Assembly (NCBI GenBank): GCA_015069215.1
Contig: SVJC01000001.1
Coordinates: forward strand, 25,896 to 89,895
DNA: 64,000 nt
Direction: 5' to 3'
Source of the DNA: Oscillospiraceae bacterium
GTDB lineage: Bacteria > Bacillota > Clostridia > Saccharofermentanales > Saccharofermentanaceae
Of this stretch, positions 10,332-41,992 are shown piece by piece. The notes under the pieces are model-generated. The model worked only from the letters and a program-made list of their open reading frames with translations. It did not search any database and was not told the DNA's origin. Numbering within the stretch: position 1 is the first letter of the stretch; every line of letters starts with the position of its first letter. The translations under genes and the position numbers were made by a program.

Positions 10332-10334
10332 AGA

Positions 10335-14510: not shown

Positions 14511-14565
14511 CCGGAATATCCTGTTTATCTGGCAGATGGAAAGCTTTTATATCAGATTTTTGGCG

Positions 14566-15450
14566 TCACTTCGTGTCTTTATGTGTGACGCTTTCGCAGG
14601 GCACGTTAAGGAGCCTGAATTCATTGATCATGAGATCGGTCTCCTTCTCGTCCCTGAGACCGATCCACAGGAATGCGCCGTCGGTCATGGTGATCCTAAG
14701 CCTGTAGATGGCCATCACTGCTCCCTGCACCTGCTGTGAAACGCACTCTTTGGTGATATGAGCAATGTTGCTTACATCAATAACCTCACAAAGCGACTTG
14801 GCAAAGATGACCATATAGTCCCTTCCGAGTACTACGAGACCATCCTTCAGACAGAAGTGGGATCCGATCATGAAGTCCGCGTTGAGACGTACGGGGTCCG
14901 CGCCTGATCTCGCTATGGCTTTCCTGAAATCGGCCTCACGCGAATAAGTAAATTCCTGTTTGCCTGCAACGGCAAAAGTAAAAAGTAATACCAATATGGA
15001 GATGCCGATGCTGATCCTGTAGTCTAAATGCATCTCGCCCGATATCTTGACCAGGAATATTCCAATGACCAGAAAGCAGCAGAATATTATCGCGCAGACT
15101 CTGGTAGTATGATTCTTTCTCCTGTAGCGCCTGATGACATCGTACATGTCACTGCCGGGAAGTCTCTTATGGATGTCAGCTTCGCGCTTTATGTCGTAAT
15201 CGGTCTTAAGATCATCTGAATACTTTTTCGGCTTAATGTTCTGCTGATAGTACATGTAAATGAACATCACAGCAGTTCCGATACAAAGAAGCGACAAGGC
15301 TGCCGATATCGCGCCGTACAGGATCTTCTCGTTCATCGTCGTCTTCTCGGCGATATCGAAAACAAGGAGTATTCCTGCTCCTGCGAACAGAACAAGTCCG
15401 AAAAGACATAATGCGAGAGTCTTAAATAATTGTTTCTTATCTACCTTCAT
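14566..15450 (-). CDS. Hypothetical membrane protein (about 4 TM)
   Basis: Long ORF with two TM hairpins; no family motif recognised. Confidence 0.7.
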   Translation of the reverse strand: MKVDKKQLFKTLALCLFGLVLFAGAGILLVFDIAEKTTMNEKILYGAISAALSLLCIGTAVMFIYMYYQQNIKPKKYSDDLKTDYDIKREADIHKRLPGSDMYDVIRRYRRKNHTTRVCAIIFCCFLVIGIFLVKISGEMHLDYRISIGISILVLLFTFAVAGKQEFTYSREADFRKAIARSGADPVRLNADFMIGSHFCLKDGLVVLGRDYMVIFAKSLCEVIDVSNIAHITKECVSQQVQGAVMAIYRLRITMTDGAFLWIGLRDEKETDLMINEFRLLNVPCESVTHKDTK

Positions 15451-15489
15451 ACCACATAGTATACGGTAAAAAGAAACAATTAATGCGGA

Positions 15490-22774: not shown

Positions 22775-22950
22775 TTAAATGTCTATTAATTCTGTTAAAT
22801 TTGAGTTTTCTTTCCCCAAACAGGCACTCAAAAAGATTAGTATTAGTGTATATTCTGGCATGCTGCGAGAAGAAACCACATCCAGCCGGCTTTCTGCCAA
22901 ATAACATAGACGAAAGACAGTGTCACACAAGAAATAGGAAGGTGTTAGGA
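22775..22950 (+). promoter_or_regulatory. Conserved 5' leader of kinase 1 (copy 1)
   Basis: The ungapped 71-nt core (22775-22845) matches 26985-27055 at 59/71 by manual count. Stem TTTGAGT/ACTCAAA. Confidence 0.65.
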
Positions 22951-24771: not shown

Positions 24772-24806
24772 GCCAAAGCTATAATTTTGTATAAGGAGAC
24801 GTAATT

Positions 24807-26393: not shown

Positions 26394-26410
26394 TCAAAGG
26401 AAGTATTGAT

Positions 26411-26809
26411 ATGGATAACCGTTACTATCAGCAACCGCAATACACCCCTACTTACCAGCCACCGGATTACGGCCAGTTCGGAAATCCTACAAACCAGGTC
26501 TACAACAATCCTATGACCATGGCTGCCAGCGCTGCGGGTGACAGAAATACCCCTGAACTCAAAACGGCTCACATCTTTGCAATCATAAGCATGATATGCG
26601 GTATCGCCGGATTGGTACTTGCATTATATTACGGTCTTGGCGCCTTCATCGGCGGCGGACCGGGACTTGTATTTGCGATCATTTCGGGCAAACTCGGTAA
26701 TGCCAGCGGAATGAGAAAGACAGGATTGATCCTTTCGATCATATCGCTTGCATTAAGTGCCTTCGTATTTGCGCTGACTTATCTAATTTCGTCTGCATTC
26801 AGCTTTTAA
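26411..26809 (+). CDS. Small membrane protein with Q/P/Y/N-rich N-terminus (DUF4190-like architecture)
   Basis: YYQQPQYTPTYQPP tail, then AIISMICGIAGL...GLVFAIIS...GLILSIISL helices. Confidence 0.8.
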   Translation: MDNRYYQQPQYTPTYQPPDYGQFGNPTNQVYNNPMTMAASAAGDRNTPELKTAHIFAIISMICGIAGLVLALYYGLGAFIGGGPGLVFAIISGKLGNASGMRKTGLILSIISLALSAFVFALTYLISSAFSF

Positions 26810-26845
26810 TGATCTAATCATAAGCAACTGTTTGGAGGGCGTAAT

Positions 26846-26962
26846 ATAATCTATTGCAGAAAATGTGGCAAAAAGCTTGCTAATGATGCCATTGTCATTC
26901 TTTGTATCATTGCTCTTGTCTGTTTTGGCTGCGCGTTATTCATTTATCTCACATTCAGATAA
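26846..26962 (+). pseudogene. Decayed zinc-ribbon + TM mini-gene (ATA in place of ATG)
   Basis: GGAGG RBS (26834-26838), then ATA ATC TAT TGC... = IIYCRKCGKKLANDAIVILCIIALVCFGCALFIYLTFR*. It parallels MIYCNNCGKPLADG of 28884 but lacks the second CxxC. Confidence 0.65.
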
Positions 26963-26984
26963 AACCGGTTCCGCCCCAAAAATA

Positions 26985-27170
26985 TTAATTGTCTATTAAA
27001 TCTGTAAAATTTGGGTGATACCTCTCCAAACAGGCACCCAAAAAGATTAGAATTAACATACGTAACACCGATATTCCGGTACGATGCGAGGGGAAAACGC
27101 AAAGCGCCGGTTTTTCGCCGGATTACATTGGCAAAGACGGTGTTGCGCACGTTACAGGAAGGTGTAGAGA
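26985..27170 (+). promoter_or_regulatory. Conserved 5' leader of kinase 2 (copy 2)
   Basis: Homologous to 22775-22950. Stem TTTGGGTG/CACCCAAA shows a compensatory A-T to G-C change relative to copy 1. Confidence 0.65.
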
Positions 27171-28856
27171 ATGGCAGGCGAGAACAAAGATTTCCCGGAT
27201 ATCAGCGTAATCTGGCCAAACTGGAAGATTACGGAAAAGATCGGGGCAGGTTCATTCGGATTCGTATATAAAGCTGTGCATAAGACCGCAGTTATCGCCG
27301 GTGATGCCGTTGCCATTAAAGTCATCAACATTCCGAAAGAAGAAAGCGAAATAGCAAACCGTAAACTTGACGGAGCTACCGACGAAGAGATCCGCAGAGA
27401 ATTTGACGAGATCCGCACTGAATATGTCAATGAGATCCGTTTTATGATGGATTTCAGGGATTCTCCCAATGTTGCAAGGATCGAAGACTACGAAGTCGTT
27501 CCAAAAAAAGACAGTATCGGCTGGATCATATATATCCGCATGGAATTAATGACCGACTTAAGGTCATGGATAAACAACAACGGCTTTAATGAGCACATAG
27601 CGGTCAAGATCGGGAAAGACATCTGCGATGCTTTAAAGATATGCGAAAGCAAAAATGTATTGCACCGTGATATCAAGCCGAGCAATATCCTTGTAAACAC
27701 TTCTACGAACACGTTTAAGCTTTCTGATTTCGGTGTTGCCAAATACAATGACAGCCTAAGCGGAAGTCTGTCATCTAAAGGCACCCCTGATTTCATGGCG
27801 CCGGAAGTTGCCAGATTCCTCCATTACGATTCACGTATCGATACCTATTCCCTGGGCCTGGTCCTGTATTATTTCATGAACCGCAGGCATGGCCCTTTTC
27901 TCGATCTGAACAGGATGCCCACACCGACAGAAATGGAAGAGGCAAAACAGCGCAGGTTCAACGGCGAACTGATCCCGCCTCCAATTGATGCAGGACCTGC
28001 GTTGGCTGAAGTAATACTTCATGCCTGCGCCTATGACCCGAACGACCGTTTCCAGTCAGCTCAGGAATTCTACGACGCTCTGTGTAAGGTCGAAGCAAGA
28101 ACATACAGGATCGGGACTTATGTCCCGAAGAGACCTGCCGCAAATGCTATTCCTCAGCAGGAATATAATCCCGGGACGATCAGAGTCCGCCGCGCACAAG
28201 GCGCACCCGTACAGGGGCCGGCACAGGTCCCTACCTGGACTCCTGCCCAGACACCGGTTCCCGCGCCCGCACAGGTGCCTACATGGACTCCTGCCCGCGC
28301 TCCTGCACAGGTACCGACCTGGACACCGCCTCCGGTCCCTGCTCAAAACAAGCCTGTAAAGCCTGCAAAAAAGCCCAATAAGGCCGTTCTGCCGGTAGTG
28401 ATCGCGATAATCGCCGTTTTATTGGTTGCCGGATCGATCACATTGGCACTTGTTCTGGCTTCACAGTACAAAAAATCCGTCATGGAAAGCAGCGGTAACT
28501 CGACCGTAAGGACGACGTCTGTAAGATCGACAAAACGTACCGAATCCCAAGAAGAGGATACTGAACCGGATGCCATCGATAAGATCTATGAGATAGACTC
28601 CAGGTTCTGGGTTATAGTATTGTGCGCATCTTTCGTCGGCTTGGGCATAGTAATATTGACAGCTGTCGCTGTGACAAATAAGAAAAACAAGAAGCCGGTC
28701 CAAAAGAACGGCCCGAACAACAAGGCAAAACCTGCACAAAGCAAGCCGGCTCCTGCCCCGGCAGCCTCTAATCAGGTCATATTCTGCAAATACTGCGGGA
28801 ACAAGCAGGACGCATCATCTGCCTTTTGCGATAAGTGCGGAAAACAAATAAAATAG
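27171..28856 (+). CDS. Hanks-type Ser/Thr kinase with Pro-rich repeats, two TMs and C-terminal zinc ribbon
   Basis: GAGSFGFVY, HRDIKPSN, DFG and GTPDFMAPE; PAQVPTWT x3; two hydrophobic helices; FCKYCGNKQDASSAFCDKCG. Confidence 0.93.
   Translation: MAGENKDFPDISVIWPNWKITEKIGAGSFGFVYKAVHKTAVIAGDAVAIKVINIPKEESEIANRKLDGATDEEIRREFDEIRTEYVNEIRFMMDFRDSPNVARIEDYEVVPKKDSIGWIIYIRMELMTDLRSWINNNGFNEHIAVKIGKDICDALKICESKNVLHRDIKPSNILVNTSTNTFKLSDFGVAKYNDSLSGSLSSKGTPDFMAPEVARFLHYDSRIDTYSLGLVLYYFMNRRHGPFLDLNRMPTPTEMEEAKQRRFNGELIPPPIDAGPALAEVILHACAYDPNDRFQSAQEFYDALCKVEARTYRIGTYVPKRPAANAIPQQEYNPGTIRVRRAQGAPVQGPAQVPTWTPAQTPVPAPAQVPTWTPARAPAQVPTWTPPPVPAQNKPVKPAKKPNKAVLPVVIAIIAVLLVAGSITLALVLASQYKKSVMESSGNSTVRTTSVRSTKRTESQEEDTEPDAIDKIYEIDSRFWVIVLCASFVGLGIVILTAVAVTNKKNKKPVQKNGPNNKAKPAQSKPAPAPAASNQVIFCKYCGNKQDASSAFCDKCGKQIK
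28221..28330 (+). repeat. Three coding repeats GCACAGGTNCCNACNTGGAC (AQVPTWT)
   Basis: Copies start at 28221, 28269 and 28305. Confidence 0.85.
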
Positions 28857-28883
28857 ACATAATCTTTTTTTGGGGATCTTTAA

Positions 28884-29603
28884 ATGATATATTGCAATAA
28901 TTGCGGCAAGCCGCTCGCTGACGGTTCAATGTTCTGTGATGGCTGCGGAAGTCCGGTAGCGGGCCCGCAAAATGCGCCCATGGCTCCGAAGAGATCCAAA
29001 AAGGGACCGGTGATCGCCATCATCGCAAGCGCTGTCGGTCTGTCGCTCCTGGGCGGAGGTATCTTTGCGGCCATCAAGTTTGCAGGCAAAGCAAAGGCTC
29101 CCAAGGAAACTGAAGATGAGACCTATTCTTATACCGAAAGTACCGATGACACAGACGAAACCACTGAAACAACAGATGATATCTTAACCACGGACGAGGA
29201 AACGAGCGACACCACAAGCGAAACCACGACTGAAGAAACTGTCGAAAGTTCTATCGGAGAGACCGGCGATGGCGAGACCAAAACACTTGAAAAAGTCATC
29301 TCTCCTGAAGAGCTCCAGAGAACTATCGATAACATGAAGGATAGCGATACCTTCAGGAACAACTATAAAGATGCGACTATCGAAGTACGTGGAAACACCA
29401 TTACTTACAAGTATTACTACAACAAGGAAATGACCGAGGACCAGCGTGCACAGGTGAAGCAAAACCTCGAAGACAGCGGCCTTCGTGAACAGATCGACGG
29501 CATGAAGGATTCATTCGAAAAAATTTACGGGGTCCGTCCTGAAAGGATCGCTTTCGAATACTATACTGCTGACGACATCCTTATAGCCTGCATAGACGCT
29601 TAA
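28884..29603 (+). CDS. Zinc-ribbon + TM + acidic T/E/D stalk + extracellular domain protein
   Basis: MIYCNNCG...FCDGCG, TM PVIAIIASAVGLSLLGGGIFAAI and TDETTETTDD stalk. Confidence 0.88.
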   Translation: MIYCNNCGKPLADGSMFCDGCGSPVAGPQNAPMAPKRSKKGPVIAIIASAVGLSLLGGGIFAAIKFAGKAKAPKETEDETYSYTESTDDTDETTETTDDILTTDEETSDTTSETTTEETVESSIGETGDGETKTLEKVISPEELQRTIDNMKDSDTFRNNYKDATIEVRGNTITYKYYYNKEMTEDQRAQVKQNLEDSGLREQIDGMKDSFEKIYGVRPERIAFEYYTADDILIACIDA

Positions 29604-30688: not shown

Positions 30689-33313
30689 TCAATACCAATC
30701 CTTGTGTCTCTTGATGTAGATGATCTTCATGATCTGGGCAAAGATCATGTAAACGACCATGAGGAGCGCGAGCCAGAGCATGTAGCTGATTGGCATCGCA
30801 GGCAGGCTGAAAAGCCTGGATACACCTGTAAATCCGATGATCAAAGTAACGGCGATTATCGCAAGAGTTGAGATCGAAAGCTGGATCGAAGCCCTGTCGT
30901 TGATGAACGGGAGCTTCGGCGTCCTGATCGTATGGATAACCATCGTCTGCGAGATAACGCCGAACATAAACCATCCGCACTGGAAGTAGCCGGCCATGTC
31001 GGGATTGTTATATCCGTATATGAACCAGAGAACAAGGAAGCACAGTACGTCAAGCACCGTACTTAAAAGTCCGAAAGACACCATGAATCCCTTGATGCCT
31101 CCGAGGTCCCATTTCTTGGGCTTTTCGATATACTTCGATTCAACATGGTCGAAAGGCATGCCGAGCTGGGCAAAATCGTTCAGGAGGTTCTGGACGAGGA
31201 TATGCACAGGAAGCATAGGCAGGAACGGCAGGAAGATGCTCGCGATAAGAACCGAGAACATGTTTCCGAAGTTACCGGAAACAGACATCTTAAGATACTT
31301 GGACATGTTTGCGAATGTGCTTCTGCCTTCAACAACGCCTTCATCGAGCACGTTGAGATCCTTTTCGAGAAGGATGATGTCAGCGACTTCCTTCGCGATA
31401 TCAACTGCGTTATCAACGGAGATTCCGATATCGGCCTGCTTGAGCGGCAAGCTGTCGTTGATGCCGTCACCCATGTATCCGACTATGTGACCCTTCGACT
31501 GGAACATCTTAACGACGCGCTGCTTCTGATATGGAGAGAGCTTTGAGAAGATATCGCAATGCTCGCAGGCTTCAGCAAGCTGCTCGTCACTCATCGCATC
31601 GATCTTCGCTCCCGTAAGAGTCATCTCAGTCCTGAAGCCGAGCCTGCCGCAGATGTTGATCGCAACGCCTTCGGAATCGCCCGTAAGAACGACCGTACGG
31701 ACGCCGTTCTTTCTCAATGCGTTGATGGCAGTTCCTGCGGACTCCTTCGGCGGGTCGAGGAAGCCAACGAATCCGATGAGGACCATGTCGCTCTCATCCT
31801 GAACGCCGAAAACATCAACGCCGTGAACATTGTTCTTCTGTGCAACGGCAATAACGCGGATGCCTTCAAGGTTATTCTCCTCGGCAAGCTTTTTCGCATT
31901 TGCGATGAGCTCGTCGGATATCTCTTTAACTTCGCCGTCGATCTCGATGAACGAGCAGATCGAAAGGATCTCTTCAACCGCGCCCTTCGTGATGAGCTGG
32001 CGCTTGCCGTTCTTGTCCTTTAACACGACGCTCATCCTGCGGCGCGAAAAGTCGAACGGGATCTCGTCTTCCCTGACATAAGCTTCCTTGAGGAACGATA
32101 GCTCCTCTTTCTCGGCACGGTTGATGATGGCAACGTCCATCAGGTTCTTAAGACCCGTTTGGAAGTAGCTGTTAAGGAATGCATGTCTTAGGATGCGCTT
32201 GTCCTCACGGCCCAGGACGTCCATATATTTTTCAAGTATGATCTCATCCTGCGTAAGCGTTCCGGTCTTGTCAGTGCAGAATACGTCCATCTCACCGAAC
32301 GTCTGGATGGCACCCAAACGCTTAACTATGGTCTTCTTGCGGGACATGTTGATAGCGCCTCTCGCAAGAGAAGAGTTCATGATGACCGGGAGCATCTCAG
32401 GCATGATTCCGACTGCGATCGTGATGCCGAACATCAGTGACTGGAGCCACGCACCCATGCCCTTGGTAAAGAAGTTTGCAATGAAAATAACAGGAACCGT
32501 TACCAGCATGAAACGGATCAGGAGCTTACTTACGGAATCGAGGTTCTTCTCGAATGCGCTCTTCTCCTCGAAAGAGTTGAGGCTCTTGGCCATGCTTCCG
32601 AAATATGTCTCCTCACCTGTCGTGAGTATGATCGCCTTGGCAGATCCCGAAACGATGTTGGATCCCATGAAGCCGATGTTTGCAAGATCGGTAACGCCGC
32701 AGTTTGTCTCAGACGTCGTGAATTTCTCGACAGGGTTGCTCTCGCCTGTAAGCTGCGACTGATCGATGAAGAGGTCCTTCGTCTCGATGAAACGCACGTC
32801 ACCAGGGATCATGTCACCTGAAGCAAGCTTTACGATATCACCCGGAACGAGTTCTTCGATCTCAACTTCCGTCTCAACGCCGTTTCTTAAGACGTCGAGC
32901 TTGTTTGTGATCATGCCCTGGAGCTTTTTGGCTGCGTTATTTGACTTCTCTTCCTGTACAAAAGAGATGACCGCAGAGATGATGATAACCGCAACGAGCA
33001 TTATGAAAGTTGCCAGCGAAGGCTCATCAGAAAGCACTACGTCGGTTACGAATGTTATGGCCGCTACAACCAGAAGCACTATGTTAAACGGGTTTATGAC
33101 CGCATCCTTGATCCTTACGGCAAGGCTTTTCTCCTTGCCGAAATCAATGATGTTCCTTCCGTACTCGTCCAGACGGTCAGCCGCCTGTATGGGGTCTAAG
33201 CCTTCCTCATCCGTCTGGTATTTTTCGAAAAGAGCCTTTTGATCCATGCCGCTTAATTCAAGCAGGATCTTCTCTACTTCACCGCGGCGCTCGTTAGGCT
33301 CTTTTTTCTTCAC
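30689..33313 (-). CDS. mgtA: Magnesium-translocating P-type ATPase
   Basis: TGES, PEMLP, DKTGTLT, DEIPFDFSRRRMSV, DPPKES, GDGIND, SGNFGN and MLPVHILVQNLL.D. Confidence 0.95.
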   Translation of the reverse strand: MKKKEPNERRGEVEKILLELSGMDQKALFEKYQTDEEGLDPIQAADRLDEYGRNIIDFGKEKSLAVRIKDAVINPFNIVLLVVAAITFVTDVVLSDEPSLATFIMLVAVIIISAVISFVQEEKSNNAAKKLQGMITNKLDVLRNGVETEVEIEELVPGDIVKLASGDMIPGDVRFIETKDLFIDQSQLTGESNPVEKFTTSETNCGVTDLANIGFMGSNIVSGSAKAIILTTGEETYFGSMAKSLNSFEEKSAFEKNLDSVSKLLIRFMLVTVPVIFIANFFTKGMGAWLQSLMFGITIAVGIMPEMLPVIMNSSLARGAINMSRKKTIVKRLGAIQTFGEMDVFCTDKTGTLTQDEIILEKYMDVLGREDKRILRHAFLNSYFQTGLKNLMDVAIINRAEKEELSFLKEAYVREDEIPFDFSRRRMSVVLKDKNGKRQLITKGAVEEILSICSFIEIDGEVKEISDELIANAKKLAEENNLEGIRVIAVAQKNNVHGVDVFGVQDESDMVLIGFVGFLDPPKESAGTAINALRKNGVRTVVLTGDSEGVAINICGRLGFRTEMTLTGAKIDAMSDEQLAEACEHCDIFSKLSPYQKQRVVKMFQSKGHIVGYMGDGINDSLPLKQADIGISVDNAVDIAKEVADIILLEKDLNVLDEGVVEGRSTFANMSKYLKMSVSGNFGNMFSVLIASIFLPFLPMLPVHILVQNLLNDFAQLGMPFDHVESKYIEKPKKWDLGGIKGFMVSFGLLSTVLDVLCFLVLWFIYGYNNPDMAGYFQCGWFMFGVISQTMVIHTIRTPKLPFINDRASIQLSISTLAIIAVTLIIGFTGVSRLFSLPAMPISYMLWLALLMVVYMIFAQIMKIIYIKRHKDWY

Positions 33314-33382
33314 AAAAATTCTCCTCCAATTATAAAAAACAAAAATAATTATACATTATCCGCATTGTGCGTGTGAATAAAG

Positions 33383-33391
33383 TGCTATAAT
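33383..33391 (+). promoter_or_regulatory. Extended -10 promoter of the DMT gene
   Basis: TG-C-TATAAT, followed by an AGGAGG RBS at 33401-33406. Confidence 0.55.
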
Positions 33392-33413
33392 GCGCGCGTC
33401 AGGAGGAACTTTC

Positions 33414-34304
33414 GTGGAGAAAAAGAGCGCTTTAGGCGACATTCTGATAATAATAGCAGGGCTGTTCTGGGGAAGCATGGGCATTTTTGTCCGTCACCTC
33501 AACAGCCTTGGTTTTACATCCATTCAGGTCGCATGCTTAAGACTCGTCACGGCAGGGATCCTTTTCGCCCTCATCCTTCTCATCAAAGAACCCCAAGGCT
33601 TCAGGATCAGTCCGAAAGACATTCCGCTGTTCCTGGCGCTGGGCCTTGTGAGCATCCTGTTCTTTACCTGCTGCTACTTCACCGCGATACGCCTCATGAC
33701 AATGTCCACGGCGGCGATCCTCCTCTACACTTCACCCATCTGGGTCATGATCCTTGCGATCATCTTCCTCAAGGAAAAGATCACTGCAGGAAAGATCATC
33801 GCGCTTGTCCTTGCTTTCTCCGGGTGCGTTCTTGTATCGGGATTCGGCGGCAAAGTAACGCCGGCCGGGATCCTAGTAGGACTCGGTTCCGGCCTTGGCT
33901 ACGGCCTTTACAGCATTTTCGGAACATTTGCGCTCAGGAAATATTCACCTCTTATGGTAACCTGCTATACGTTCCTGATCGCAGGACTTGGTTCGGTATT
34001 TGTCTCTGATCCTATGGATCTCATGACGAAGATATCAGCTGCAGAAAACAAGCCCGCACTGTTCGGCTTTGTTCTCCTGACATCTGTGATCACAGCCGTG
34101 ATCCCGTTCCTGCTCTATACACTCGGTCTCGGAAAGACCACGGCAGGAAGGGCAGCAGTCCTTGCGACCGTTGAACCTGCCGCAGCAACGCTTTTCGGTT
34201 TTTTCGTCATGAAAGAGACCATAGGACCTGTTGCGATCCTTGGTATGCTTTTGGTATTCGCTGCGATCATCGTCTTAAGCATAAAAAACGCTGATAAGCA
34301 GTAA
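33414..34304 (+). CDS. EamA/DMT family transporter
   Basis: Ten TMs in two repeats (FWGSMG, LLYTSPIWV, LATVEPAAA). GTG start at 33414. Confidence 0.9.
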   Translation: MEKKSALGDILIIIAGLFWGSMGIFVRHLNSLGFTSIQVACLRLVTAGILFALILLIKEPQGFRISPKDIPLFLALGLVSILFFTCCYFTAIRLMTMSTAAILLYTSPIWVMILAIIFLKEKITAGKIIALVLAFSGCVLVSGFGGKVTPAGILVGLGSGLGYGLYSIFGTFALRKYSPLMVTCYTFLIAGLGSVFVSDPMDLMTKISAAENKPALFGFVLLTSVITAVIPFLLYTLGLGKTTAGRAAVLATVEPAAATLFGFFVMKETIGPVAILGMLLVFAAIIVLSIKNADKQ

Positions 34305-34323
34305 CTTAAGCTTATCAGCGTTT
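34286..34323. terminator. Bidirectional terminator between the DMT and TIR genes
   Basis: AAACGCTGATAAGC-10nt-GCTTATCAGCGTTT. Confidence 0.7.
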
Positions 34324-34330
34324 GGAAGAA

Positions 34331-37030
34331 CTATTTCTTAGTTTCGACCCACTTTTTCACGTATTTGTCGTAAGTCTCCTGACTTAAGAGCTTTTTCTCA
34401 TTCAGTTTCTTCAGAGTGCCAACGAGATCATCCTTTCCGCTGTAACCCCTATCCAAAGCCGCACTGTAACAAACTGCGGCTTTGTTATATTCTTTTGCAT
34501 TTTCATAAGCCACGCCTGCATGTCTTGCATACATTGCATTGCTGGTATCAACATCTGCAGCTTTCACAAAGTATTTTCCTGCAGCACTATAATCCTTTTC
34601 ATTAAAGAAACAATAACCTAATCCGCCATATATTTTTTCCATTATATCCTTGTCATCAAATTCAAACTCGGCGGCTTTTAAGAAATATATCTTCGCTTTG
34701 GCATGATCTTTGGCGATAACTCCTTTATCGACTGAATCATCATAATACATCAGGCCAAGTCGGTATGCGGCATATGCGTTTACTTCCCAACCGGATTTAT
34801 CTTCATAGTATTCTCTTGCCTTTACATAATCTCCATCTTTGTAATAAAAGTTGCCGAGATTACCTGCACCGTATTTATTTCCTACAGCTGCAGCTTTTTC
34901 ATAATAATGTTTTGCAGTGTTATCGTCTTCGGTGCCCAACAAACCGTCATCATATATTACTCCAACTTCAACCATGGCATCTGAATCACCCAGATCAGCT
35001 GCTTTCTTGTAATGCTTTAGTGCATTCTCATAATCCGGTTTGTTATCATCAGACAAATTTCCCTCTTTGTACAATGCTCCGAGCTGATAGCTTGCATTGG
35101 CATACCCCTCGTTTTCAGCCATTCTAAAAAATCTTGCGGCTTCGTTATAGTCCTTATCAACCGCCCAACCGTTAGCATAGTATAATCCCACGTTATACAT
35201 CGCAACTTCATCACCGGCATTTACGGCTTTCATATACCATTTAAATGCTTCGTTATTATCCCGTTCTTCTTTTAGAACACCATAGTAATATCCCATCTGG
35301 ATCATACAGCTAGTGCTTCCCAGATCAATACCTTTTTGATAATACTCAAGAGCTTTATCGACATTCTTTTCCTCGCCATACCCATCAAGGTAAATATCGC
35401 CAAGACTGGAATAAGCATCAACATACCCGTTTTCAGCAGCTTTCTCATACCATTGTCTGGCCGCTTTATAGTCATTCTCATCGCCATTTTTGCCATATTC
35501 TCCATTAAGATACATGTTGCCGATTATATTCATGGCATACCCGTCACCGGCATCGGCTGCTTTCTTGTACCAGTTATAGGCCTCGTCGATGTTCTCCTGG
35601 AGAGGATCTTTGCCGTATCTGTATAGTCTGCCTATGTTTCTCATGGCAGTGACATTTCCGGAGTCTGCAGCTTTTCTATAATAATCATAAGCAGTCTGTC
35701 CGTTATGCTCACGCCCGTATCCACTCTCATATGAAACACCCACAGCGTTAAGTGCCGAGATATTTCCAAGCTCAGCAGCCTTATCAAAGTATTTCATTGC
35801 TTCCCTGTAATAATCCTGAGCATGTACATCTTCGCCGCGCGCTGCATATAATCTTGCAATACTGTAATTGGCATCTCCTCTATATGCAGGATAATTTGTC
35901 ATTGCAAGGTTGTAATTCTCGATGGCTTTATCGTAGTCCCTTTCAACACCGGCAAATCCGTTCTTATAAACGTCTCCGATCTTTATGTAAGAAGCAGCAA
36001 CTATTTCTTTATCTGATGAGCCAAGTGCAGCGTTAAAATATTCAAGTGCTTGTTTTGCATCCGCATCTTCTCCGGAAAAGCGACCTGACATTTTCAGGAG
36101 TCCGGCATAGAGTTTTGCTTCTATACAGCCTTGTTTATTTGCCTTATCGATCAATTCGTTTGATTTTTCCAGATCTATCTTTACGCCGTTTCCCGTAAGA
36201 TACAGATAACCCAGTCTTGCAGTTGCACGGTCGCTGCCCTTTTCCATGCCGGTCTCGTATTGTTTCTTGGCTTCTTCATCTTTGTCATCTCTCTCAAGGA
36301 GACGGCCAAGGTAATAATATGCGTCAGGATTCTTCTTGGAAGCCTTCTCGAAATATTCACGGGCCCGTGCATTATCTTCTGTACCACGATATTCGGAATT
36401 ATATGCTTCAATACCAAGAGCCATGTATTTAGACGGATTACCCGCAAACAAGAATGCAAACAGTACTCCGAGCAGTACGAGTAATGCAGCAACTGCCGGA
36501 ATGATTATCTTTAACGGGTTGGTTTTCTTTTTGGGAGCTTTCTTAACCTTGGCGGGGACATCATTCTTCTCAGCCTGAAGATCTCCTGGAGGAGCGATCT
36601 GAAGTATGTTCATGACATACTTTCTCAAGGACTCGATGTTTTGATTTAAAGGGGGCGTGAGAGCATCAAGCCAGTGAACCCTGGAAAGGTAATAACCGAA
36701 TTCGGCATTCATGGTATCTTTGGTCAGTCTGAACGGAACTATTGTCTTTCCCGCATTGAAAGCCACTGCGACTTCATTCATGACCTGCTTGGATTGATTG
36801 GAATCTTCCGTATAAATGAGTATGAATATGTTTGTTTCCTTGATCGCTTCCGTAAGCGCGGTGACCCATCTTGCACCGGGAACTATGTCTCTTGGGGCAT
36901 ACCAGCACTTGATGCCGTGCTGTTCGAAATCAGCAACGATCGCATCTGCGACATTCTTATTCTTGGTTGAATAACTTATGAAAACATCATGCTTATGATT
37001 GCTGATCTTGTTCGCAACGTTCTCTGACAT
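34331..37030 (-). CDS. TIR domain - TM - Sel1-like repeat protein
   Basis: HDVFISYS, CWYAPRDI.PG..W and SNQSKQVMNEV (TIR with conserved Glu), basic KVKKAPKKK, one TM, then roughly 15 or more Sel1-like repeats (A...LG..Y..G.G...D...A..WY.KAA..G). Confidence 0.92.
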   Translation of the reverse strand: MSENVANKISNHKHDVFISYSTKNKNVADAIVADFEQHGIKCWYAPRDIVPGARWVTALTEAIKETNIFILIYTEDSNQSKQVMNEVAVAFNAGKTIVPFRLTKDTMNAEFGYYLSRVHWLDALTPPLNQNIESLRKYVMNILQIAPPGDLQAEKNDVPAKVKKAPKKKTNPLKIIIPAVAALLVLLGVLFAFLFAGNPSKYMALGIEAYNSEYRGTEDNARAREYFEKASKKNPDAYYYLGRLLERDDKDEEAKKQYETGMEKGSDRATARLGYLYLTGNGVKIDLEKSNELIDKANKQGCIEAKLYAGLLKMSGRFSGEDADAKQALEYFNAALGSSDKEIVAASYIKIGDVYKNGFAGVERDYDKAIENYNLAMTNYPAYRGDANYSIARLYAARGEDVHAQDYYREAMKYFDKAAELGNISALNAVGVSYESGYGREHNGQTAYDYYRKAADSGNVTAMRNIGRLYRYGKDPLQENIDEAYNWYKKAADAGDGYAMNIIGNMYLNGEYGKNGDENDYKAARQWYEKAAENGYVDAYSSLGDIYLDGYGEEKNVDKALEYYQKGIDLGSTSCMIQMGYYYGVLKEERDNNEAFKWYMKAVNAGDEVAMYNVGLYYANGWAVDKDYNEAARFFRMAENEGYANASYQLGALYKEGNLSDDNKPDYENALKHYKKAADLGDSDAMVEVGVIYDDGLLGTEDDNTAKHYYEKAAAVGNKYGAGNLGNFYYKDGDYVKAREYYEDKSGWEVNAYAAYRLGLMYYDDSVDKGVIAKDHAKAKIYFLKAAEFEFDDKDIMEKIYGGLGYCFFNEKDYSAAGKYFVKAADVDTSNAMYARHAGVAYENAKEYNKAAVCYSAALDRGYSGKDDLVGTLKKLNEKKLLSQETYDKYVKKWVETKK

Positions 37031-37109
37031 ACATACCCTCCTGCTCCGCCACCCAAGGCCGTCTGAAAAAGAAACTCAGACAAGGGTATTATACCACTCG
37101 GCTAAATTA

Positions 37110-38864
37110 TTATTGAGGATTCACAGGCTGACCGGCATCGACAGATTCCATGAGCTTGCTCACCTTCTCGGGCGACATGGGCTTGCCCCAGATATAACCT
37201 TGGATGTAATCGCACCCGATGGCCTTCAGTTCGTCGAGCTGTTCCTGCGATTCAACGCCTTCGGATATGACCTTCAGGCCAAGGATATGTCCGAGCGAAA
37301 TGATCATGGAAACATACTGCTTTGAAGAATCGCTGTCATCCATCTTGTCTATGAAGGCCTTGTCGATCTTAAGCAGATCGGAAGGAATGCTGTTCAGATA
37401 ACTGAGCGATGAGTAGCCTGTTCCGAAATCGTCGATTGCGATCTTCATGCCCATCTTCTTGATCTCTTCGATGCGCCACAGAGCCTTTTCCGCAGAGTCG
37501 ATCATGATGGATTCGGTAATCTCGATCTCGATCCTGTGCGGAGGAAAACCCGTTTCGGAGATTACCCTTCTGATCTCTTCCATGAAATTGTTCTTCATGA
37601 GGTGCCTGACGGAGACATTGATGCTGAGCAGAAAGTCGTGATTTTCGGCATTCGGAAGAGAAGCCAGCAAAGACGCTGCCATTTCAAACACGCCGAGATC
37701 GATACGGTCAATAAGGCCTGTCTTCTCCGCGACGGGAATGAACTCAACGGGGCTGATATATGAACCGTCATCGTCCTTCATGCGGGCCAGCGCTTCAAAG
37801 CCGCGGAGATTATGCTCGAGGTCATATTGTGGCTGAAGATTGAAAAGGAGCTTGCCTGAGCTCAAGCAAGAACGGATCTTACGCTCGATCTCCAGATCTT
37901 TTTCGGAATTCAGTACGGAATGATTGAATCTCAGGATCCTGCTTCCGCTTCCCTTTTTCTTGACTTCGTGAAGAGCGGAATCCGAGAAAAGATAAAGGTT
38001 CTCTATGACGTCACTGTCATCCGGGCATGTGGTATATCCGAAGCACGCCGTCAGATAGTAATCGCAGTCATCGATCGTGATCTTTCTCTCGAGTTCATCC
38101 TTGTAAGCATCAATGGTCTTCTTATAGGCTTCAGACGAACCTGTTCCGGTGATTATCAGGTAGAATTCGTCACCGCTGGTCCTTCCGACAAAATCCGTAG
38201 TTCCGGTCTTGTGAGAATCCGCAAGGGTTCTCCATCTGTCAGCTATCTCTCTTAAGACGTTGTCACCTGTCTCATGACCCATTGTGTCGTTTATGCTCTT
38301 GAAGTTGTTGATGTCGATGGAGACAAGGGCAAACTTCTCGGAATTCTTAATGAGGTCCTGCATGAGCTCGCCGCCGGCGAACCTGTTGGGGAGCCCCGTG
38401 ATCCTGTCTGTTACGGCCTGCTCGCGGATGCTGTTCTGATATAAAGTGATCCTACGGCTTCCAAGATAGATGATCGTTACGGAGATCGTGACAAGTATAT
38501 TGGAAAATATGCCCGGAATGTTCCTGTAATTGCGCAGTCTGATTATGTTCATGAGTATTCCGGGGAACTGTATCGAAAGCAATGCCAGGGCAAGAATAAA
38601 GCCCGCTTTGCGGAACAGCAGGACCATACAGATCAGGCAGATGTTCGAAAGCGAGGAAAAGACACCCGTGAAAGAACTGATATCAAGAGTTACGCCAAAC
38701 AAAACGACGGTCCCGTGCGCCTTGGCCGTAATTACGACCATGTAATATGAGATCGCGTACAAAAGAGCGAGCAAGATAAAAGCACTCTTCGGGGTTTCTC
38801 TTTTCAAAGAGATCTTCCGAAGAGTGTTTTTAATGTTACCCTTGTCGGTTTTGGTCTTTACCAC
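37110..38864 (-). CDS. Membrane GGDEF-EAL protein
   Basis: About 4 TMs, DRITGLPNR, RTSGDEF, GFEALAR, EITES, IDDFGTGYSSLSYL, LKIDK, EGVE and QGY. Confidence 0.92.
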   Translation of the reverse strand: MVKTKTDKGNIKNTLRKISLKRETPKSAFILLALLYAISYYMVVITAKAHGTVVLFGVTLDISSFTGVFSSLSNICLICMVLLFRKAGFILALALLSIQFPGILMNIIRLRNYRNIPGIFSNILVTISVTIIYLGSRRITLYQNSIREQAVTDRITGLPNRFAGGELMQDLIKNSEKFALVSIDINNFKSINDTMGHETGDNVLREIADRWRTLADSHKTGTTDFVGRTSGDEFYLIITGTGSSEAYKKTIDAYKDELERKITIDDCDYYLTACFGYTTCPDDSDVIENLYLFSDSALHEVKKKGSGSRILRFNHSVLNSEKDLEIERKIRSCLSSGKLLFNLQPQYDLEHNLRGFEALARMKDDDGSYISPVEFIPVAEKTGLIDRIDLGVFEMAASLLASLPNAENHDFLLSINVSVRHLMKNNFMEEIRRVISETGFPPHRIEIEITESIMIDSAEKALWRIEEIKKMGMKIAIDDFGTGYSSLSYLNSIPSDLLKIDKAFIDKMDDSDSSKQYVSMIISLGHILGLKVISEGVESQEQLDELKAIGCDYIQGYIWGKPMSPEKVSKLMESVDAGQPVNPQ

Positions 38865-38986
38865 GGGGTTTCCTCACACACATCAAAAGGATTGATTCCA
38901 TTATATATGTGAGATTTTTGAAAAGGTGTTAATAAACACTTCAGAAGTTTCGGAAGTGATTATAAACTGTTAATAATCCGTGACTG

Positions 38987-39634
38987 TCAGACCTTAAAGC
39001 ACTTAAAGACCGCTTTTTCCGAACCGAGAACCAATACCGATGTGTCCGGCTCGAAAACCGTATCAGGCGAGATCATCATGTTCAGCTTTTCATTCTTCAT
39101 TATTCCGAGGATGTTTATGCCGAATCTTCTTCTGATATCAACCTCAATGACCGTGCTGCCATACCATTCTGCAGGAACTGCCATCTCATAGATCGCATAT
39201 TCGCTGTTGATCGCTATGTAATCCATAATGGCGTCTGAAGTGCATGTGATGGCAGTCCATCCCGCTATCTTCTTTTCGGGATATACGACTTCGTCAGCAC
39301 CGTTTCTTAAAAGTATCTTTTCCTGTGTACCTTTGGAAGCACGCGCAATGACCTTCTTGGCTCCGAGTTCCTTCAGGAGGAACGCTGTCTCGAGTGAGTT
39401 CTGGAAATCATCGCCGATCGCTACGATGCAGGCATCATAGTTATCAACTCCGAGCGAACGCATGAACTCCTCGTTGGTGCTGTCGCCTATCTGCGCGTTG
39501 GTAACGTAAGGCAGTATGGCATTGACGCGCTCCTCGTCGTTGTCTATGGCCATGACCTCGTGGTGCATGCTGTTGAGCTTCAATGCAATATACTTGCCGA
39601 AACGTCCGAGTCCGATCAATAAGATTGATTTCAT
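38987..39634 (-). CDS. ktrA: K+ uptake regulatory subunit (TrkA/KtrA, RCK)
   Basis: LIGLGRFG, GDST, VAIGDD, ARA and VVYPE. Confidence 0.9.
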   Translation of the reverse strand: MKSILLIGLGRFGKYIALKLNSMHHEVMAIDNDEERVNAILPYVTNAQIGDSTNEEFMRSLGVDNYDACIVAIGDDFQNSLETAFLLKELGAKKVIARASKGTQEKILLRNGADEVVYPEKKIAGWTAITCTSDAIMDYIAINSEYAIYEMAVPAEWYGSTVIEVDIRRRFGINILGIMKNEKLNMMISPDTVFEPDTSVLVLGSEKAVFKCFKV

Positions 39635-39644
39635 AATCTCCTCC

Positions 39645-40970
39645 TTATCCTACAGTCAGTTTTTCCTGGGGTAATTTGGACAGATTGCCCTGACTTGTCA
39701 CAGCAGAGAAGATCAAGGTAAGTCCGCCAACTCTTCCTATGTACATGAGAATTATCAGTATCACACGTGAGAATATGGAAAGGCCCGGCGTGATGCCCAA
39801 TGTGAGACCAACCGTGCCTACCGCAGATGCGGTCTCAAACAGACAGGTCATCAACGGAAGACCTTCAACGGCGCTGATGGCTACGCCGCCCGTAACGAAA
39901 AGGATGAGGTACATCGTCACGATCGCGATCGCGTTGCGGAGAACGCTGTCCGGTATGGTCCTGCCGCCGAAAACAGTATGCTCCTTACGTCTGAAGACCG
40001 AGAATGCAGTCAGGACCACCACTGCAAATGTGGTCGTCTTCATACCGCCGGCCGTAGATCCCGGAGAACCTCCGATGAGCATGAGCACGATCATGAAAGT
40101 AAGACCGCCTGATTTGAGCTTCGTCAGATCAAGGGTGTTAAAGCCTGCCGTTCTTGTGGTTACGGACTGGAAGATGGCACCCCAGATCCTTGTGCCCACA
40201 GCCGTATCCTTAAACTCGAAAAAGAAGAAATACAGTGCAGGAACGGTGATCAGAACCAGTGTCGTAAGCAGTACGAGCTTGGACTGCATGCGGTATTTGT
40301 GAAGATGGAACTTGTTTGTCTTAACGTCTTCCCAGACAAGGAAACCTATACCGCCGATTATGATCAGGAGCATAATGACCACATTGACAAGCGGGTGACC
40401 GGGGAAATAAGTCAGTGACGAGAATTTCTCTTTGGCGCCCATCAGGTCAAATCCCGCATTGCAGAATGCGGAGACTGAATGGAAGACTGAATACCAGATG
40501 CCCTTGCCTACGCCGAATTCCTTGATGAACACAGGTGCAAGGAGCATTGCTCCGGTCAGTTCGATGATGCCCGTGATCTTTAAGATAAATCCCGTGAGCT
40601 TGACGATGCCGCCCATCTGCGGAGCTGAGATCGCTTCCTGCATGGTGCTGCGCTGCATGAGTCCGATCTTTCTTCCGGAAATGACCGATATCGCGACTGC
40701 CATCGTAACAACGCCCATGCCGCCGATCTGGATAAGCGTCAGGATTATCGCCTGTCCGAATCCTGACCAATAGGTTGCGGTATCCTGGACTATCAGTCCC
40801 GTAACGCAGACGGCAGATGTTGCGGTGAAGATCGCGTCGGCAAAAGTTGCGCCCTGTCCGTCCGCAGTCGCGAACGGCAGCATAAGAAGCAAAGCTCCGA
40901 GAAGGATCGCTCCCAGGAAGCCTAAGATTATTATTTGCGATGATGTAAGCTTTTTAGGAGCCCACGCCAT
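39645..40970 (-). CDS. ktrB: K+ uptake membrane subunit (TrkH/KtrB)
   Basis: FTATSAVCVTGL, SAFCNAGF, TTRTAGF, GGSPGSTAGGMK and ETASAVGTVGL. Confidence 0.92.
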   Translation of the reverse strand: MAWAPKKLTSSQIIILGFLGAILLGALLLMLPFATADGQGATFADAIFTATSAVCVTGLIVQDTATYWSGFGQAIILTLIQIGGMGVVTMAVAISVISGRKIGLMQRSTMQEAISAPQMGGIVKLTGFILKITGIIELTGAMLLAPVFIKEFGVGKGIWYSVFHSVSAFCNAGFDLMGAKEKFSSLTYFPGHPLVNVVIMLLIIIGGIGFLVWEDVKTNKFHLHKYRMQSKLVLLTTLVLITVPALYFFFFEFKDTAVGTRIWGAIFQSVTTRTAGFNTLDLTKLKSGGLTFMIVLMLIGGSPGSTAGGMKTTTFAVVVLTAFSVFRRKEHTVFGGRTIPDSVLRNAIAIVTMYLILFVTGGVAISAVEGLPLMTCLFETASAVGTVGLTLGITPGLSIFSRVILIILMYIGRVGGLTLIFSAVTSQGNLSKLPQEKLTVG

Positions 40971-41074
40971 ATATTTTCCTCCAGGGGGACACCCGGATAT
41001 CCGAATTAGAAGAGTCCCTTAATCTACTTGTGAAGTATAACACTAAATAATAAATTCAGAGAAAACCCTCCGGG

Positions 41075-41992
41075 TCAGAGCCATTTCTTCCGTTTGAAGA
41101 AGATAAGGCTGATTATGACGATCATTACGGATACGCCGATTACGATCGGATAAGCGATCGGAGACTGGAATTCGGGCATGTAGACAAAGTTCATTCCGTA
41201 CCAGCCCGCAATGAGCGTAAGCGGCATGAAGATACTCGTAATTACCGTGAGGATCGTCATTATCTTGTTCTGCTTGAGGTCGATCTGCGCCTGGCTAAGA
41301 TCCCTTATCTGAGCCGTATAGTCTGCAAGCGATGTCGTCATGTCGTAAAGCGTCCTGACGCGCTGGGCAACCAGGTGGAAATATCTTTCGTTGTCTTCTT
41401 TGAAGAACTCGTTCTCGTTTTCTTCCAGCTCCTGGCTGAGATCCAGAAGCTGCGCATAGTGGATCCTGAGATCTCTGATCTGGCTCCTGATGTCACTGAG
41501 TTCGATTATCGATTCCTCCGCCTCACCCTTCAGGATGTCGTCTTCCATTGCATCGAGCTTTATCTCGAACTTCTCGAGGATCTTATAGTCCCTGTGGATT
41601 ATGCTCTCCAGAAAATCGTATAAGAACTTCTCAAGGCAGGGGTTGATGTATTTCTTGGTTTTAGCGATCCTCTCGATTATCTTTGACGCGAAGCCCTCAT
41701 CGTCAATGAAGACGATACCCTTCTCGTCCAGAGCGAACGCGAAATTGTGGTAGACCTCGTTGATCTTGTCACGGCTCGGGATGCAGAATGTTCCGGTAAG
41801 CGAATCGATGTTCACTTCACAGCCGGTATTTGAGATATCGTCAAGATTGATATCCCACTCGATACCCATGTCGAACTTGCGGTTGGAATTGATCCACTCC
41901 TCGGATCCGATGACGGCAACATACTGAAACGGGATGTTGTCAAACGTTTTAGGCTCGAAAGGCTCGATCCTCTCCCCTATCTTGTAGTACAT
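41075..41992 (-). CDS. corA: CorA family Mg2+/Co2+ transporter
   Basis: MTILTVITSIFMPLTLIAGWYGMNF signature with two C-terminal TMs. Start at ATG 41992. Confidence 0.9.
   Translation of the reverse strand: MYYKIGERIEPFEPKTFDNIPFQYVAVIGSEEWINSNRKFDMGIEWDINLDDISNTGCEVNIDSLTGTFCIPSRDKINEVYHNFAFALDEKGIVFIDDEGFASKIIERIAKTKKYINPCLEKFLYDFLESIIHRDYKILEKFEIKLDAMEDDILKGEAEESIIELSDIRSQIRDLRIHYAQLLDLSQELEENENEFFKEDNERYFHLVAQRVRTLYDMTTSLADYTAQIRDLSQAQIDLKQNKIMTILTVITSIFMPLTLIAGWYGMNFVYMPEFQSPIAYPIVIGVSVMIVIISLIFFKRKKWL

Follow-up and report, generated by a model that had tools for sequence, protein, structure and literature searches.

The bacterial TIR systems known so far sense infection from within the cell. 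The present analysis concerns a TIR protein with a predicted extracellular part, encoded by a single gene in a 64,000-nucleotide stretch of DNA from an Oscillospiraceae bacterium (contig SVJC01000001.1; this whole stretch is referred to below as the window). The protein consists of an N-terminal TIR domain, a single transmembrane (TM) helix, and a long array of Sel1-type repeats, which are predicted to lie in the cytoplasm, in the membrane, and outside the cell, respectively. The membrane-spanning TIR-TM-ectodomain class that it represents is a real, uncharacterised variant of bacterial TIR proteins.

Among the closest described bacterial systems are defence proteins encoded by single genes, namely the Escherichia coli TIR-II, in which TIR is combined with TPR repeats (PMC11350192), and the Bacillus subtilis SpbK (PMC12847820); the defence by both requires the active site of the TIR. 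According to the published descriptions, these resemble the window protein in being stand-alone genes that join TIR to a repeat or sensor domain, but neither is described as a single-pass protein with repeats outside the cell. A recent survey indicates that the TM and leucine-rich repeat (LRR) features of Toll-like receptors (TLRs) seem to be absent from bacterial TIR systems (PMC11350192). Within the full-text collection searched, no paper was found on a bacterial TIR-TM-Sel1 or TIR-TM-LRR receptor.

The metazoan TLRs are similar in being single-pass proteins with a solenoid ectodomain and a cytoplasmic TIR domain of homologous fold, and two sister proteins of the window protein (P0151 and P0167) have LRRs as well. 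The window protein differs from them in that its TIR is N-terminal, its orientation is that of a type II protein, its ectodomain is made of Sel1 repeats, and no MyD88-type adaptor is evident. Moreover, its TIR looks enzymatic, being closest to those of SARM1 and TIR-1. None of the signal peptide, the N-terminal LRR, the C-terminal TIR, and the type I orientation of a TLR is found in it. The likeness is one of convergent architecture and not of orthology. The Toll-like receptor architecture proposed in an earlier sequence-only reading of this DNA holds for the membrane-spanning solenoid-TIR layout; it does not hold for the domain order, which is inverted, or for the type of repeat, and the comparison is an analogy only.

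Domain layout and topology

The gene is an open reading frame (ORF) on the minus strand (34331..37030) that starts with ATG and encodes 899 amino acids (aa), the stop codon being included in this span. Its assignment as a TIR-TM-Sel1 coding sequence is based on the ORF, on Pfam, on the full-length AlphaFold2 (AF2) model, and on a ratio of nonsynonymous to synonymous divergence (dN/dS) of 0.09-0.42. Pfam TIR_2 (PF13676) matches aa 16-124 with an E value of 4.6e-21 (76 bits, cut-off 28), and Pfam Sel1 (PF08238) matches with 8.9e-63 (206.9 bits, cut-off 30.7), 10 stretches passing the threshold each on its own. The NCBIfam matches are only partial, mostly to other Sel1/TPR-repeat proteins, and all lie far under the cut-offs. 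On the basis of Pfam, AF2, and Foldseek, together with the family profile in the case of the TIR, the predicted cytoplasmic TIR domain is placed at aa 13-145 (36596..36994, minus strand), and the Sel1-type α/α solenoid, which is predicted to be extracellular, at aa 201-899 (34334..36430, minus strand).

The AF2 models, built on family alignments, support these assignments. In the TIR model, the blocks spanning aa 21-140 have confidence (pLDDT) values of 94-98. The full-length model, with a mean pLDDT of 88, contains the TIR fold, residues 148-196 as a disordered or membrane segment, and some 36 helices across 199-895, most of them with a pLDDT above 90. Foldseek matches the TIR model to RPP1, MyD88, the TIR-APAZ protein of SPARTA, and SARM1 (E values of about 1e-7, probability 1.0), with TM-scores of 0.7-0.8 relative to the target, and the Sel1 part to the Oxalobacter protein 6ok3, E. 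coli c5321 (4bwr), SEL1L, LceB, LpnE, and HcpC (1e-16 to 1e-9). The protein belongs to the TIR superfamily, as judged from the match above threshold and the predicted flavodoxin-like fold, and likewise to the Sel1-like repeat family, the repeats also being above threshold and modelled as an α/α solenoid.

Between the two parts lies a single TM helix at aa 175-200 (36431..36508, minus strand), with a Kyte-Doolittle peak of 2.94; it is the sole segment above 1.6 in the protein. It is preceded by a Lys-rich juxtamembrane stretch, AKVKKAPKKKTNPLK, at aa 160-174 (36509..36553, minus strand), which has 6 Lys or Arg (K/R) in 15 residues, while the 15 residues after the helix contain only 1. The sequence-only reading had named an N-terminal TIR with the Glu of a VMNEV motif, a basic stretch followed by one TM helix, and about 700 aa of Sel1 repeats, and each of these elements is borne out here, including the Glu, which is the invariant Glu86 discussed in the next section. 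The topology, which had been put forward tentatively with TIR inside and Sel1 outside, is likewise supported by the family data that follow.

Of 78 family ORFs, 75 have exactly one TM helix after the TIR; the remaining three are cut by contig ends or short. With the hydrophobic core delimited, 59 of these 75 ORFs are richer in K/R on the TIR side, 10 are equal, and 6 are poorer, the means being 5.2 vs 2.9. When the TIR+TM region (aa 1-200) was searched without filters against 1.84 billion representatives, 26,756 hits were obtained, 837 of them at E ≤ 1e-30, and the top 150 included 125 new representatives. Among the latter, 75 have the form TIR-TM-X, meaning that a lone TIR is followed by one or more TM segments and then by 100 aa or more; 72 of the 75 have exactly one TM. 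Another 7 of the 125 combine TIR and TM with a short tail, and about 31 are soluble, with 2-5 TIR domains in tandem. The K/R bias of the 75 TIR-TM-X proteins favours the N side in 59 cases and the C side in 5, with 11 equal.

The C-terminal domains of these 75 proteins are diverse: Sel1 (17), DUF285 (8), DUF5050 propeller (7), LRR_4 (6), LRR_EndoS (6), BspA-type LRR_5 (5), LRR_8 (5), Trypsin_2 (2), and DUF6273 (2), together with single cases of FGE-sulfatase, a Bmp/PnrA solute-binding protein, a C-type lectin (Lectin_C), and YARHG. Checked examples are P0151 (TIR-TM-LRR), P0167 (TIR-TM-BspA LRR), P0215 (TIR-TM-Bmp), P0233 (TIR-TM-FGE-sulfatase), and P0195 (TIR-TM-trypsin). Stalks rich in Ser, Thr, Pro, and Glu often open the C-terminal part of the sister proteins, after the TM. 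In bacteria, modules of the solute-binding, BspA-LRR, lectin, and trypsin-like protease kinds are found outside the cytoplasm. Because the TIR+TM unit is fused in the relatives to mostly extracytoplasmic domains, the TIR is placed inside and the repeats outside, and the ectodomains of the sister proteins provide the strongest argument for this predicted topology, which we regard as well supported. As far as domain assignments can tell, the TIR-TM-ectodomain class is large and modular, one TIR+TM unit carrying many different ectodomains, and the window protein fits it. The class is defined here by a TIR of this subfamily that is succeeded, at a distance of about 30-60 aa, by exactly one TM helix with basic residues before it and by a variable C-terminal domain.

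We have also considered the reverse arrangement, in which the Sel1 repeats would be cytoplasmic, the TM helix a mere tether, and nothing would be sensed outside. Such an arrangement has precedents in a kinase-Sel1 (P0089) and a GTPase-Sel1 protein (P0097), in which the Sel1 repeats are cytoplasmic and a tail anchor is C-terminal, and 16 of the 75 family members lack the K/R bias to the TIR side. However, a single TM puts TIR and Sel1 on opposite sides of the membrane, export is improbable for a folded N-terminal domain of 170 aa that lacks a signal peptide, and an exported TIR would find no NAD+. Together with the basic stretch on the TIR side and with the solute-binding, lectin, and BspA-LRR domains and the S/T/P-rich stalks that sister proteins hold at the position of the repeats, this makes the reverse topology very unlikely.

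The layout also recalls Hanks-type receptor kinases, such as the kinase-TM-Sel1 protein P0102, in which a cytoplasmic catalytic domain is followed by a basic stretch, a TM, a stalk, and an ectodomain; in the window protein, by contrast, TIR replaces the kinase as the output. Two such kinases are encoded in the window itself. A cluster on the plus strand (22801-29603) contains paralogous Ser/Thr kinases (22801-24771 and 27171-28856) and zinc-ribbon proteins (24807-26393 and 28884-29603). Both kinases show, like the TIR protein, the succession of a catalytic domain, a K-rich stretch, a TM, a Thr-rich stalk, and an ectodomain, and one of the zinc-ribbon proteins similarly has a cytoplasmic domain, a basic stretch, a TM, a Thr-rich stalk, and an ectodomain. 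The listed TTG start of the first kinase is probably too far upstream, since its paralogue starts at the equivalent of 'MANENKRFPDISV'. Elsewhere, similar Sel1 arrays are joined to kinases, AAA ATPases, a dynamin-like GTPase, and a caspase-like peptidase (P0089, P0091, P0097, P0102, P0113, P0114). Some of these fusions end in C-terminal tail anchors, and Sel1 arrays are therefore not always extracellular.

Sel1 modules are also known from other conflict systems. Those that are preceded by a TM in the iSTAND/vWA-MoxR systems have been described as associating with peptidoglycan or the cell wall (PMC7159879), and Avs5 has Sel1-like sensors (PMC12931631). The window protein resembles these systems in the use of Sel1 as a sensor or a cell-wall-associating module.

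The TIR domain as a putative NAD-cleaving enzyme

The candidate catalytic residue is Glu86 (codon at 36773..36775, minus strand), which closes the motif S-K-Q-V-M-N-E-V but for its last residue and is invariant in the family alignments, that is, in 29 full-length relatives, in 49 more diverse relatives, and in 75 sister proteins with other ectodomains. In the grapevine RPV1/RUN1 TIR, a pairwise search pairs it with the Glu of SRWCLDEL. The family TIR profile was also compared with the PDB, where the best matches are Caenorhabditis elegans TIR-1 (1.2e-10), oyster TIR-STING, and human SARM1 (1e-8), while TLR1/2/6 and MyD88 score at about 1e-5, well behind TIR-1 and SARM1. The profile alignment puts Glu86 opposite the Glu of DWVHKE(I/L) in SARM1 and TIR-1. 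The aligned residues, E642 of SARM1 and E100 of RUN1, are known to be catalytic. The conserved Glu to which the sequence-only reading drew attention is thus aligned with the catalytic Glu of both the animal and the plant enzymes.

The similarity has its limits. SARM1 is a soluble octamer whose TIR works under ARM and SAM domains, with neither TM nor ectodomain, and the identity to it is about 17-20%. Moreover, in the window TIR an invariant Gln82 takes the place of the Trp that often occurs four residues before the Glu, in the common WxxxE motif, and this may speak against catalysis. On the alignments and profile scores taken together, the TIR is probably an NAD-cleaving enzyme.

The alternative would be a non-catalytic TIR that acts as an assembly module in the manner of TLRs and MyD88 and recruits a cytoplasmic partner, e.g., another TIR protein. 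The Trp-to-Gln exchange is in line with such a role, as are the many invariant surface positions beyond the active site and the fact that Foldseek places MyD88 and MAL filaments alongside the NADase TIRs. The soluble tandem-TIR proteins, which make up about a quarter of the new representatives in the same subfamily, also count in its favour. However, a scaffold-only TIR is less likely because hundreds of relatives keep the Glu without exception, in register with the catalytic Glu of SARM1, and because the profile prefers NADases to adaptor TIRs by some 4-5 orders of magnitude. In addition, no TIR partner gene is found near any of 79 family loci, obtained in a one-genome-per-species scan, except for a tandem duplicate in L021, and the sole tandem-TIR context examined lay away from the TIR-Sel1 loci. 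We therefore consider the scaffold role rather unlikely.

The soluble proteins of the TIR subfamily are free of TM segments and carry 2-5 tandem TIR domains (P0121-P0127 and about 25 further representatives; L083-L085). The one whose context was examined, P0246 (876 aa), is surrounded by numerous small ORFs without annotation, close to a weak PycTM match, at a locus unrelated to any TIR-Sel1 locus.

Family pattern and strain variation

A word-indexed search gave 459 relatives. Many share the layout at a length of about 900 aa or about 550 aa, and the databases label them as 'TIR domain-containing protein' or 'SEL1-like repeat protein'. The named sources among them are Lachnospiraceae, Butyrivibrio, Acetatifactor, and Saccharofermentans metagenome-assembled genomes. 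The 79 loci of the one-genome-per-species scan all belong to Lachnospiraceae/Clostridia of the rumen or ruminant gut, among them the isolates AB2028, AC2028, G41, XPB1003, and P6A3, and the window sequence itself is present in bovine, goat, and sheep gut metagenomes. At least 10 assemblies have 2-3 copies. L021 contains a tandem pair of full-length TIR-TM-Sel1 genes (9980-16023) encoding 995 and 1006 aa. Double zinc ribbons (DZR) recur in the family, fused N-terminally to the TIR in some members (P0013, P0023) and as a separate gene in 6 of the 132 immediate neighbours (e.g., L001 8070-9947 and L066 12175-13233).

Within the family, the median pairwise identity reaches 71% in the TIR but only 36% in the ectodomain. 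By this measure, the family pattern is that of a conserved putative effector joined to a variable putative sensor.

A residence in the ruminant gut could also suggest that the TIR is directed at the host, as an effector of the Tcp/TirS kind acting against animal TLR signalling. Such an action has been proposed for the TIR proteins of bacterial pathogens (PMC7075850). However, the present TIR is N-terminal, lacks a signal peptide, and is predicted to be cytoplasmic; no secretion system is seen in the window context; and the family has multiplied in commensal rumen Lachnospiraceae, whose genomes contain several paralogues each. A host-directed effector is thus extremely unlikely.

The variation between strains is concentrated in the gene. 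In L082, which carries the allele P0001 (89% identical), the flanking genes (P-type ATPase, EamA, GGDEF-EAL, TrkA, TrkH, and CorA) are 97.3-99.7% identical to the window at the nucleotide level, whereas the TIR-Sel1 gene is 88-94% identical depending on the segment. The upstream intergenic stretch is 100% identical in L082 and in a further strain, L088. The L088 allele, P0002, is a mosaic: the TIR is 99.3% identical, the linker and TM 84%, aa 201-450 99.2%, aa 451-664 89.6% with a 234-nt insertion that adds two more Sel1 repeats, and aa 665-899 72.5%. In a more distant genome, L080, the TIR-Sel1 protein has 83% identity vs 85-96% for the neighbours. According to these comparisons, the locus is a hot spot of divergence and recombination between near-identical strains, L082 and L088 matching the window at 97-100% in the flanks. 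Hot spots of this kind are characteristic of genes that are surface-exposed or serve in conflict.

With respect to the two close alleles, dN/dS is 0.09-0.42 in all segments, and the gene is hence under purifying selection. Positive selection was not detected, the ratio being below 1 in every segment. The synonymous divergence from P0001 is about 0.2, and because it is this high, the strain divergence looks like the import or recombination of diverged alleles and not like fast change in place. Among the joints listed for four ruminant metagenomes over 32300-41500, whose data are noisy, none skipped the gene as an empty-site or deletion allele would.

The gene is AT-rich compared with its neighbours, in agreement with the sequence-only reading. 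Its GC content is 0.421 vs 0.487 ± 0.021 in the other 55 ORFs of the window, and its GC content at third codon positions (GC3) is 0.399 vs 0.582 ± 0.052 (z = -3.5). The anomaly sits in the Sel1 part (0.369), the TIR part being near normal (0.518). The only other window gene with a GC3 that low (0.402) is the first kinase (22801-24771). A recent horizontal transfer as the source of the low GC is not supported, the gene being syntenic in related species and free of flanking mobile-element genes. In other genomes, the GC3 of the family is slightly low as well (median -0.028; z below -2 in 10 of 55). We attribute the anomaly, at least in part, to an intrinsic feature of the family or to an old event, because synteny is kept and the family GC3 is low elsewhere.

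Locus, candidate partners, and function

The gene is flanked by control elements of its own. The 79-nt gap that separates it from the stop codon of the upstream GGDEF-EAL gene contains, as read on the minus strand, an extended -10 promoter-like element, TGGTATAAT (37088..37096), followed directly, at the predicted 5' end of the transcript, by a small hairpin with a 6-bp stem, GTCTGA ... TCAGAC (37061..37081), and by a ribosome-binding site, AGGAGG (37037..37042), 6 nt 5' of the ATG. The consensus promoter scan made no call at TGGTATAAT because a good -35 element is absent. Downstream lies an intrinsic terminator (34283..34323, minus strand), identified by reading and by folding, with a 14-bp stem, a 10-nt loop, and the U-run UUUUUUAU; it overlaps the 3' end of the convergent EamA gene. 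The hairpin folds with -21.4 kcal/mol (z = -5.9), and none of 200 shuffled sequences was as stable, in keeping with the separate terminator noticed in the sequence-only reading. The consensus terminator scan found nothing downstream of the gene, since the loop of 10 nt is beyond the 3-8 nt that it allows. Judged by these elements, the TIR-Sel1 gene is a monocistronic, stand-alone unit with its own promoter-like element, ribosome-binding site, and terminator.

A hint of transcription comes from two bovine metatranscriptomes, in which contigs of 211-223 nt match with 0-1 mismatches; it is weak, as DNA carry-over is possible. The Rfam scan of the window gave no riboswitch near the gene. Its sole match, a T-box leader (RF00230, 95.1 bits) at 6105-6350 on the minus strand, agrees with an origin in the Firmicutes.

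The neighbours in the window are the convergent EamA gene and, upstream on the same strand, a gene for a GGDEF-EAL membrane protein (37110-38864, minus strand), together with TrkA, TrkH, CorA, and a P-type ATPase; TrkA, with its nucleotide-binding KTN domain, and TrkH are two genes upstream of the TIR-Sel1 gene. No other TIR or Sel1 gene is present in the window, and no mobile-element genes flank the TIR-Sel1 gene. Both the position of a lone gene between housekeeping genes and the lack of a visible partner effector in the window, as stated in the sequence-only reading, stand. The defence role that it had put forward gains nothing from the context. When about 1,100 ORFs of the 79 loci were clustered in search of a universal partner, the commonest neighbour occurred in 9 loci only, all of common ancestry. 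PADLOC, applied to the 132 immediate neighbours at these loci, matched at most about 8 of them to any model (WYL, Cas3c-like, one CARF-PDDEXK, mad3/8, and DolB), with no enrichment in defence functions, and the commonest Pfam domains among the 132 were glycosyltransferase (7), double zinc ribbons (6), GGDEF (5), and LRR_4 (4). Since the neighbours show no conserved or defence set, we describe the family as a stand-alone gene outside defence islands.

The known multigene TIR systems do not account for the protein. Thoeris ThsB, the CBASS TIR-SAVED (Cap12), and the Pycsar PycTIR are similar to it by weak matches at the TIR domain, and its relatives give faint CAP12-PCTIR_TIR hits. In PADLOC, the protein has TIR-level matches only, within aa 5-100, namely SAVED_TIR with 1.5e-9 (aa 13-92) and ThsB with 1e-5, and its assignment to a known PADLOC system was rejected for this reason. 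A ThsA-like neighbour is missing from the window, and no ThsA model is found among the PADLOC matches of the 132 neighbours; no CD-NTase, cyclase, or SAVED partner occurs in the window or at the 79 loci; and NTPase, vWA, and MoxR domains, expected of STAND/Avs or iSTAND, are found neither in the protein nor in the flanking genes. As these defining partners and domains were sought and are absent, the system is not Thoeris, CBASS/Pycsar, or STAND.

Two kinds of neighbour are met repeatedly. A GGDEF-EAL homologue with 50% identity to that of the window lies downstream of the TIR gene in L014, L015, L018, and L034, i.e., in a second arrangement. In L018 and L034, a WYL-domain protein is located between the two genes. 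The adjacency may be due to chance, GGDEF genes being numerous in these bacteria. The other neighbour is a membrane protein of 620 aa that adjoins the TIR gene on the same strand in 7 genomes (L002, L004, L009, L010, L021, L035, and L086), which belong to the sub-clade nearest to the window protein. It has a GFGxxGQ Rossmann motif and a C-terminus like that of the ryanodine receptor (RyR), with no Pfam match above threshold, and it is often accompanied by a KcsA-like K+ channel of 525 aa with a RyR domain, in at least 4 gene orders. In the reverse test, on 80 metagenome loci of the 620-aa protein (L089-L168), a TIR-family gene was found in the flanks of 8; it was present in 5 of the 23 loci with at least 3 kb on both sides, and the channel adjoins in 35 of the 80. 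Both proteins are absent from the window, and the window TrkA and TrkH are unrelated to them in sequence. The putative K+ channel pair is therefore a lead for the sub-clade and not a finding on the window gene.

These observations bear on the possibility that the same layout serves physiological signalling. The TIR output, be it the level of NAD+ or a signal of the ADP-ribose (ADPR) or cyclic ADP-ribose (cADPR) type, would then regulate nucleotide-binding channels or transporters or second-messenger enzymes, the cue being the status of the wall, a nutrient, or a host or plant polymer. Such a role would suit the recurrence of the channel pair beside the TIR gene in various gene orders, the TIR-family genes met in the reverse test, the TrkA/TrkH genes of the window, and the two arrangements of GGDEF-EAL. 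It would also suit the housekeeping context with its stable synteny, the TIR conservation of 71%, as if a downstream target were fixed, and an ectodomain range like that of bacterial receptor kinases (Bmp, FGE-sulfatase, LRR, Sel1, and propellers). On the other hand, no non-immune bacterial TIR signalling pathway is known, the channel pair is missing at most TIR-Sel1 loci, that of the window included, the adjacency of the abundant GGDEF genes may be accidental, and the allelic hypervariability between strains is better suited to conflict. We regard physiological signalling as possible, though not probable.

The reading that we favour is that of a type II (N-in, C-out) single-pass receptor, in a Clostridia/Lachnospiraceae bacterium of the ruminant gut, in which a ligand clusters the TIR domains, which then cleave NAD+, with conflict as the most likely trigger; we put its probability at roughly 45%. 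The Sel1 solenoid, outside the membrane in the zone of the cell wall, would bind a protein or cell-envelope ligand, and the binding would shift the oligomeric state of the receptor. Clustering would then join the cytoplasmic TIR domains into composite active sites, as in SARM1, plant TIRs, and bacterial TIR effectors, for which activation driven by oligomerisation is established; for the window TIR, this mode of activation is an inference by analogy. The clustered domains would cleave NAD+, resulting either in its depletion, with growth arrest or abortive infection, or in a signal derived from ADP-ribose. The trigger could be a conflict at the cell surface, e.g., with a phage, a competitor, or a wall-degrading enzyme. 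We consider such a trigger the most likely because it is the ectodomain that varies and because the alleles of different strains diverge at this locus as at a hot spot.

The receptor part of this proposal is well supported and the defence part is partly supported. A role in conflict is suggested by the variable sensor with its conserved effector, the expansion of paralogues, the strain hot spot, and the precedents of single-gene TIR defence proteins. A number of observations, besides the Gln82 exchange, count against it. The window neighbours are genes for ion transport and cyclic di-GMP signalling, their synteny is stable in related species, in which the gene differs from many mobile defence genes, and PADLOC shows no defence enrichment around the family. 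Positive selection was not detected at the resolution of the comparison, and the hot-spot evidence comes from metagenome contigs, which are possibly chimeric. To our knowledge, sensing outside the cell is unusual for the known abortive-infection systems. The housekeeping context, the stable synteny, the lack of defence neighbours, and the receptor-kinase-like range of ectodomains favour physiological signalling instead.

If the clustering-activated receptor is confirmed, a TIR enzyme would be tied to an extracellular sensor through one helix, which is a different logic from that of the known bacterial systems, namely detection at the surface, and the protein would be the closest bacterial analogue yet of the TLR layout. 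The replaceable ectodomain makes activation by clustering tractable to test. Since the TIR+TM unit occurs with such varied ectodomains, among them LRRs, the class could throw light on the construction of modular surface receptors in bacteria, and it could reveal what rumen bacteria keep watch on in their surroundings. A wider proposal, which we consider a doubtful one, is that rumen Lachnospiraceae, and probably other bacteria, possess a repertoire of TLR-like receptors (TIR-TM-LRR, -Sel1, -solute-binding, -lectin, and -propeller) that would respond to extracellular ligands with nucleotide signals derived from NAD+, the output in one sub-clade going to the adjacent K+ channel pair with RyR domains, which would be nucleotide-gated. 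Should the link to this channel be functional, it would represent a new type of effector for NAD-derived signals. If true, the repertoire would be a prokaryotic counterpart both of the surface pattern-recognition receptors and of the proposed link between cADPR and the ryanodine receptor.

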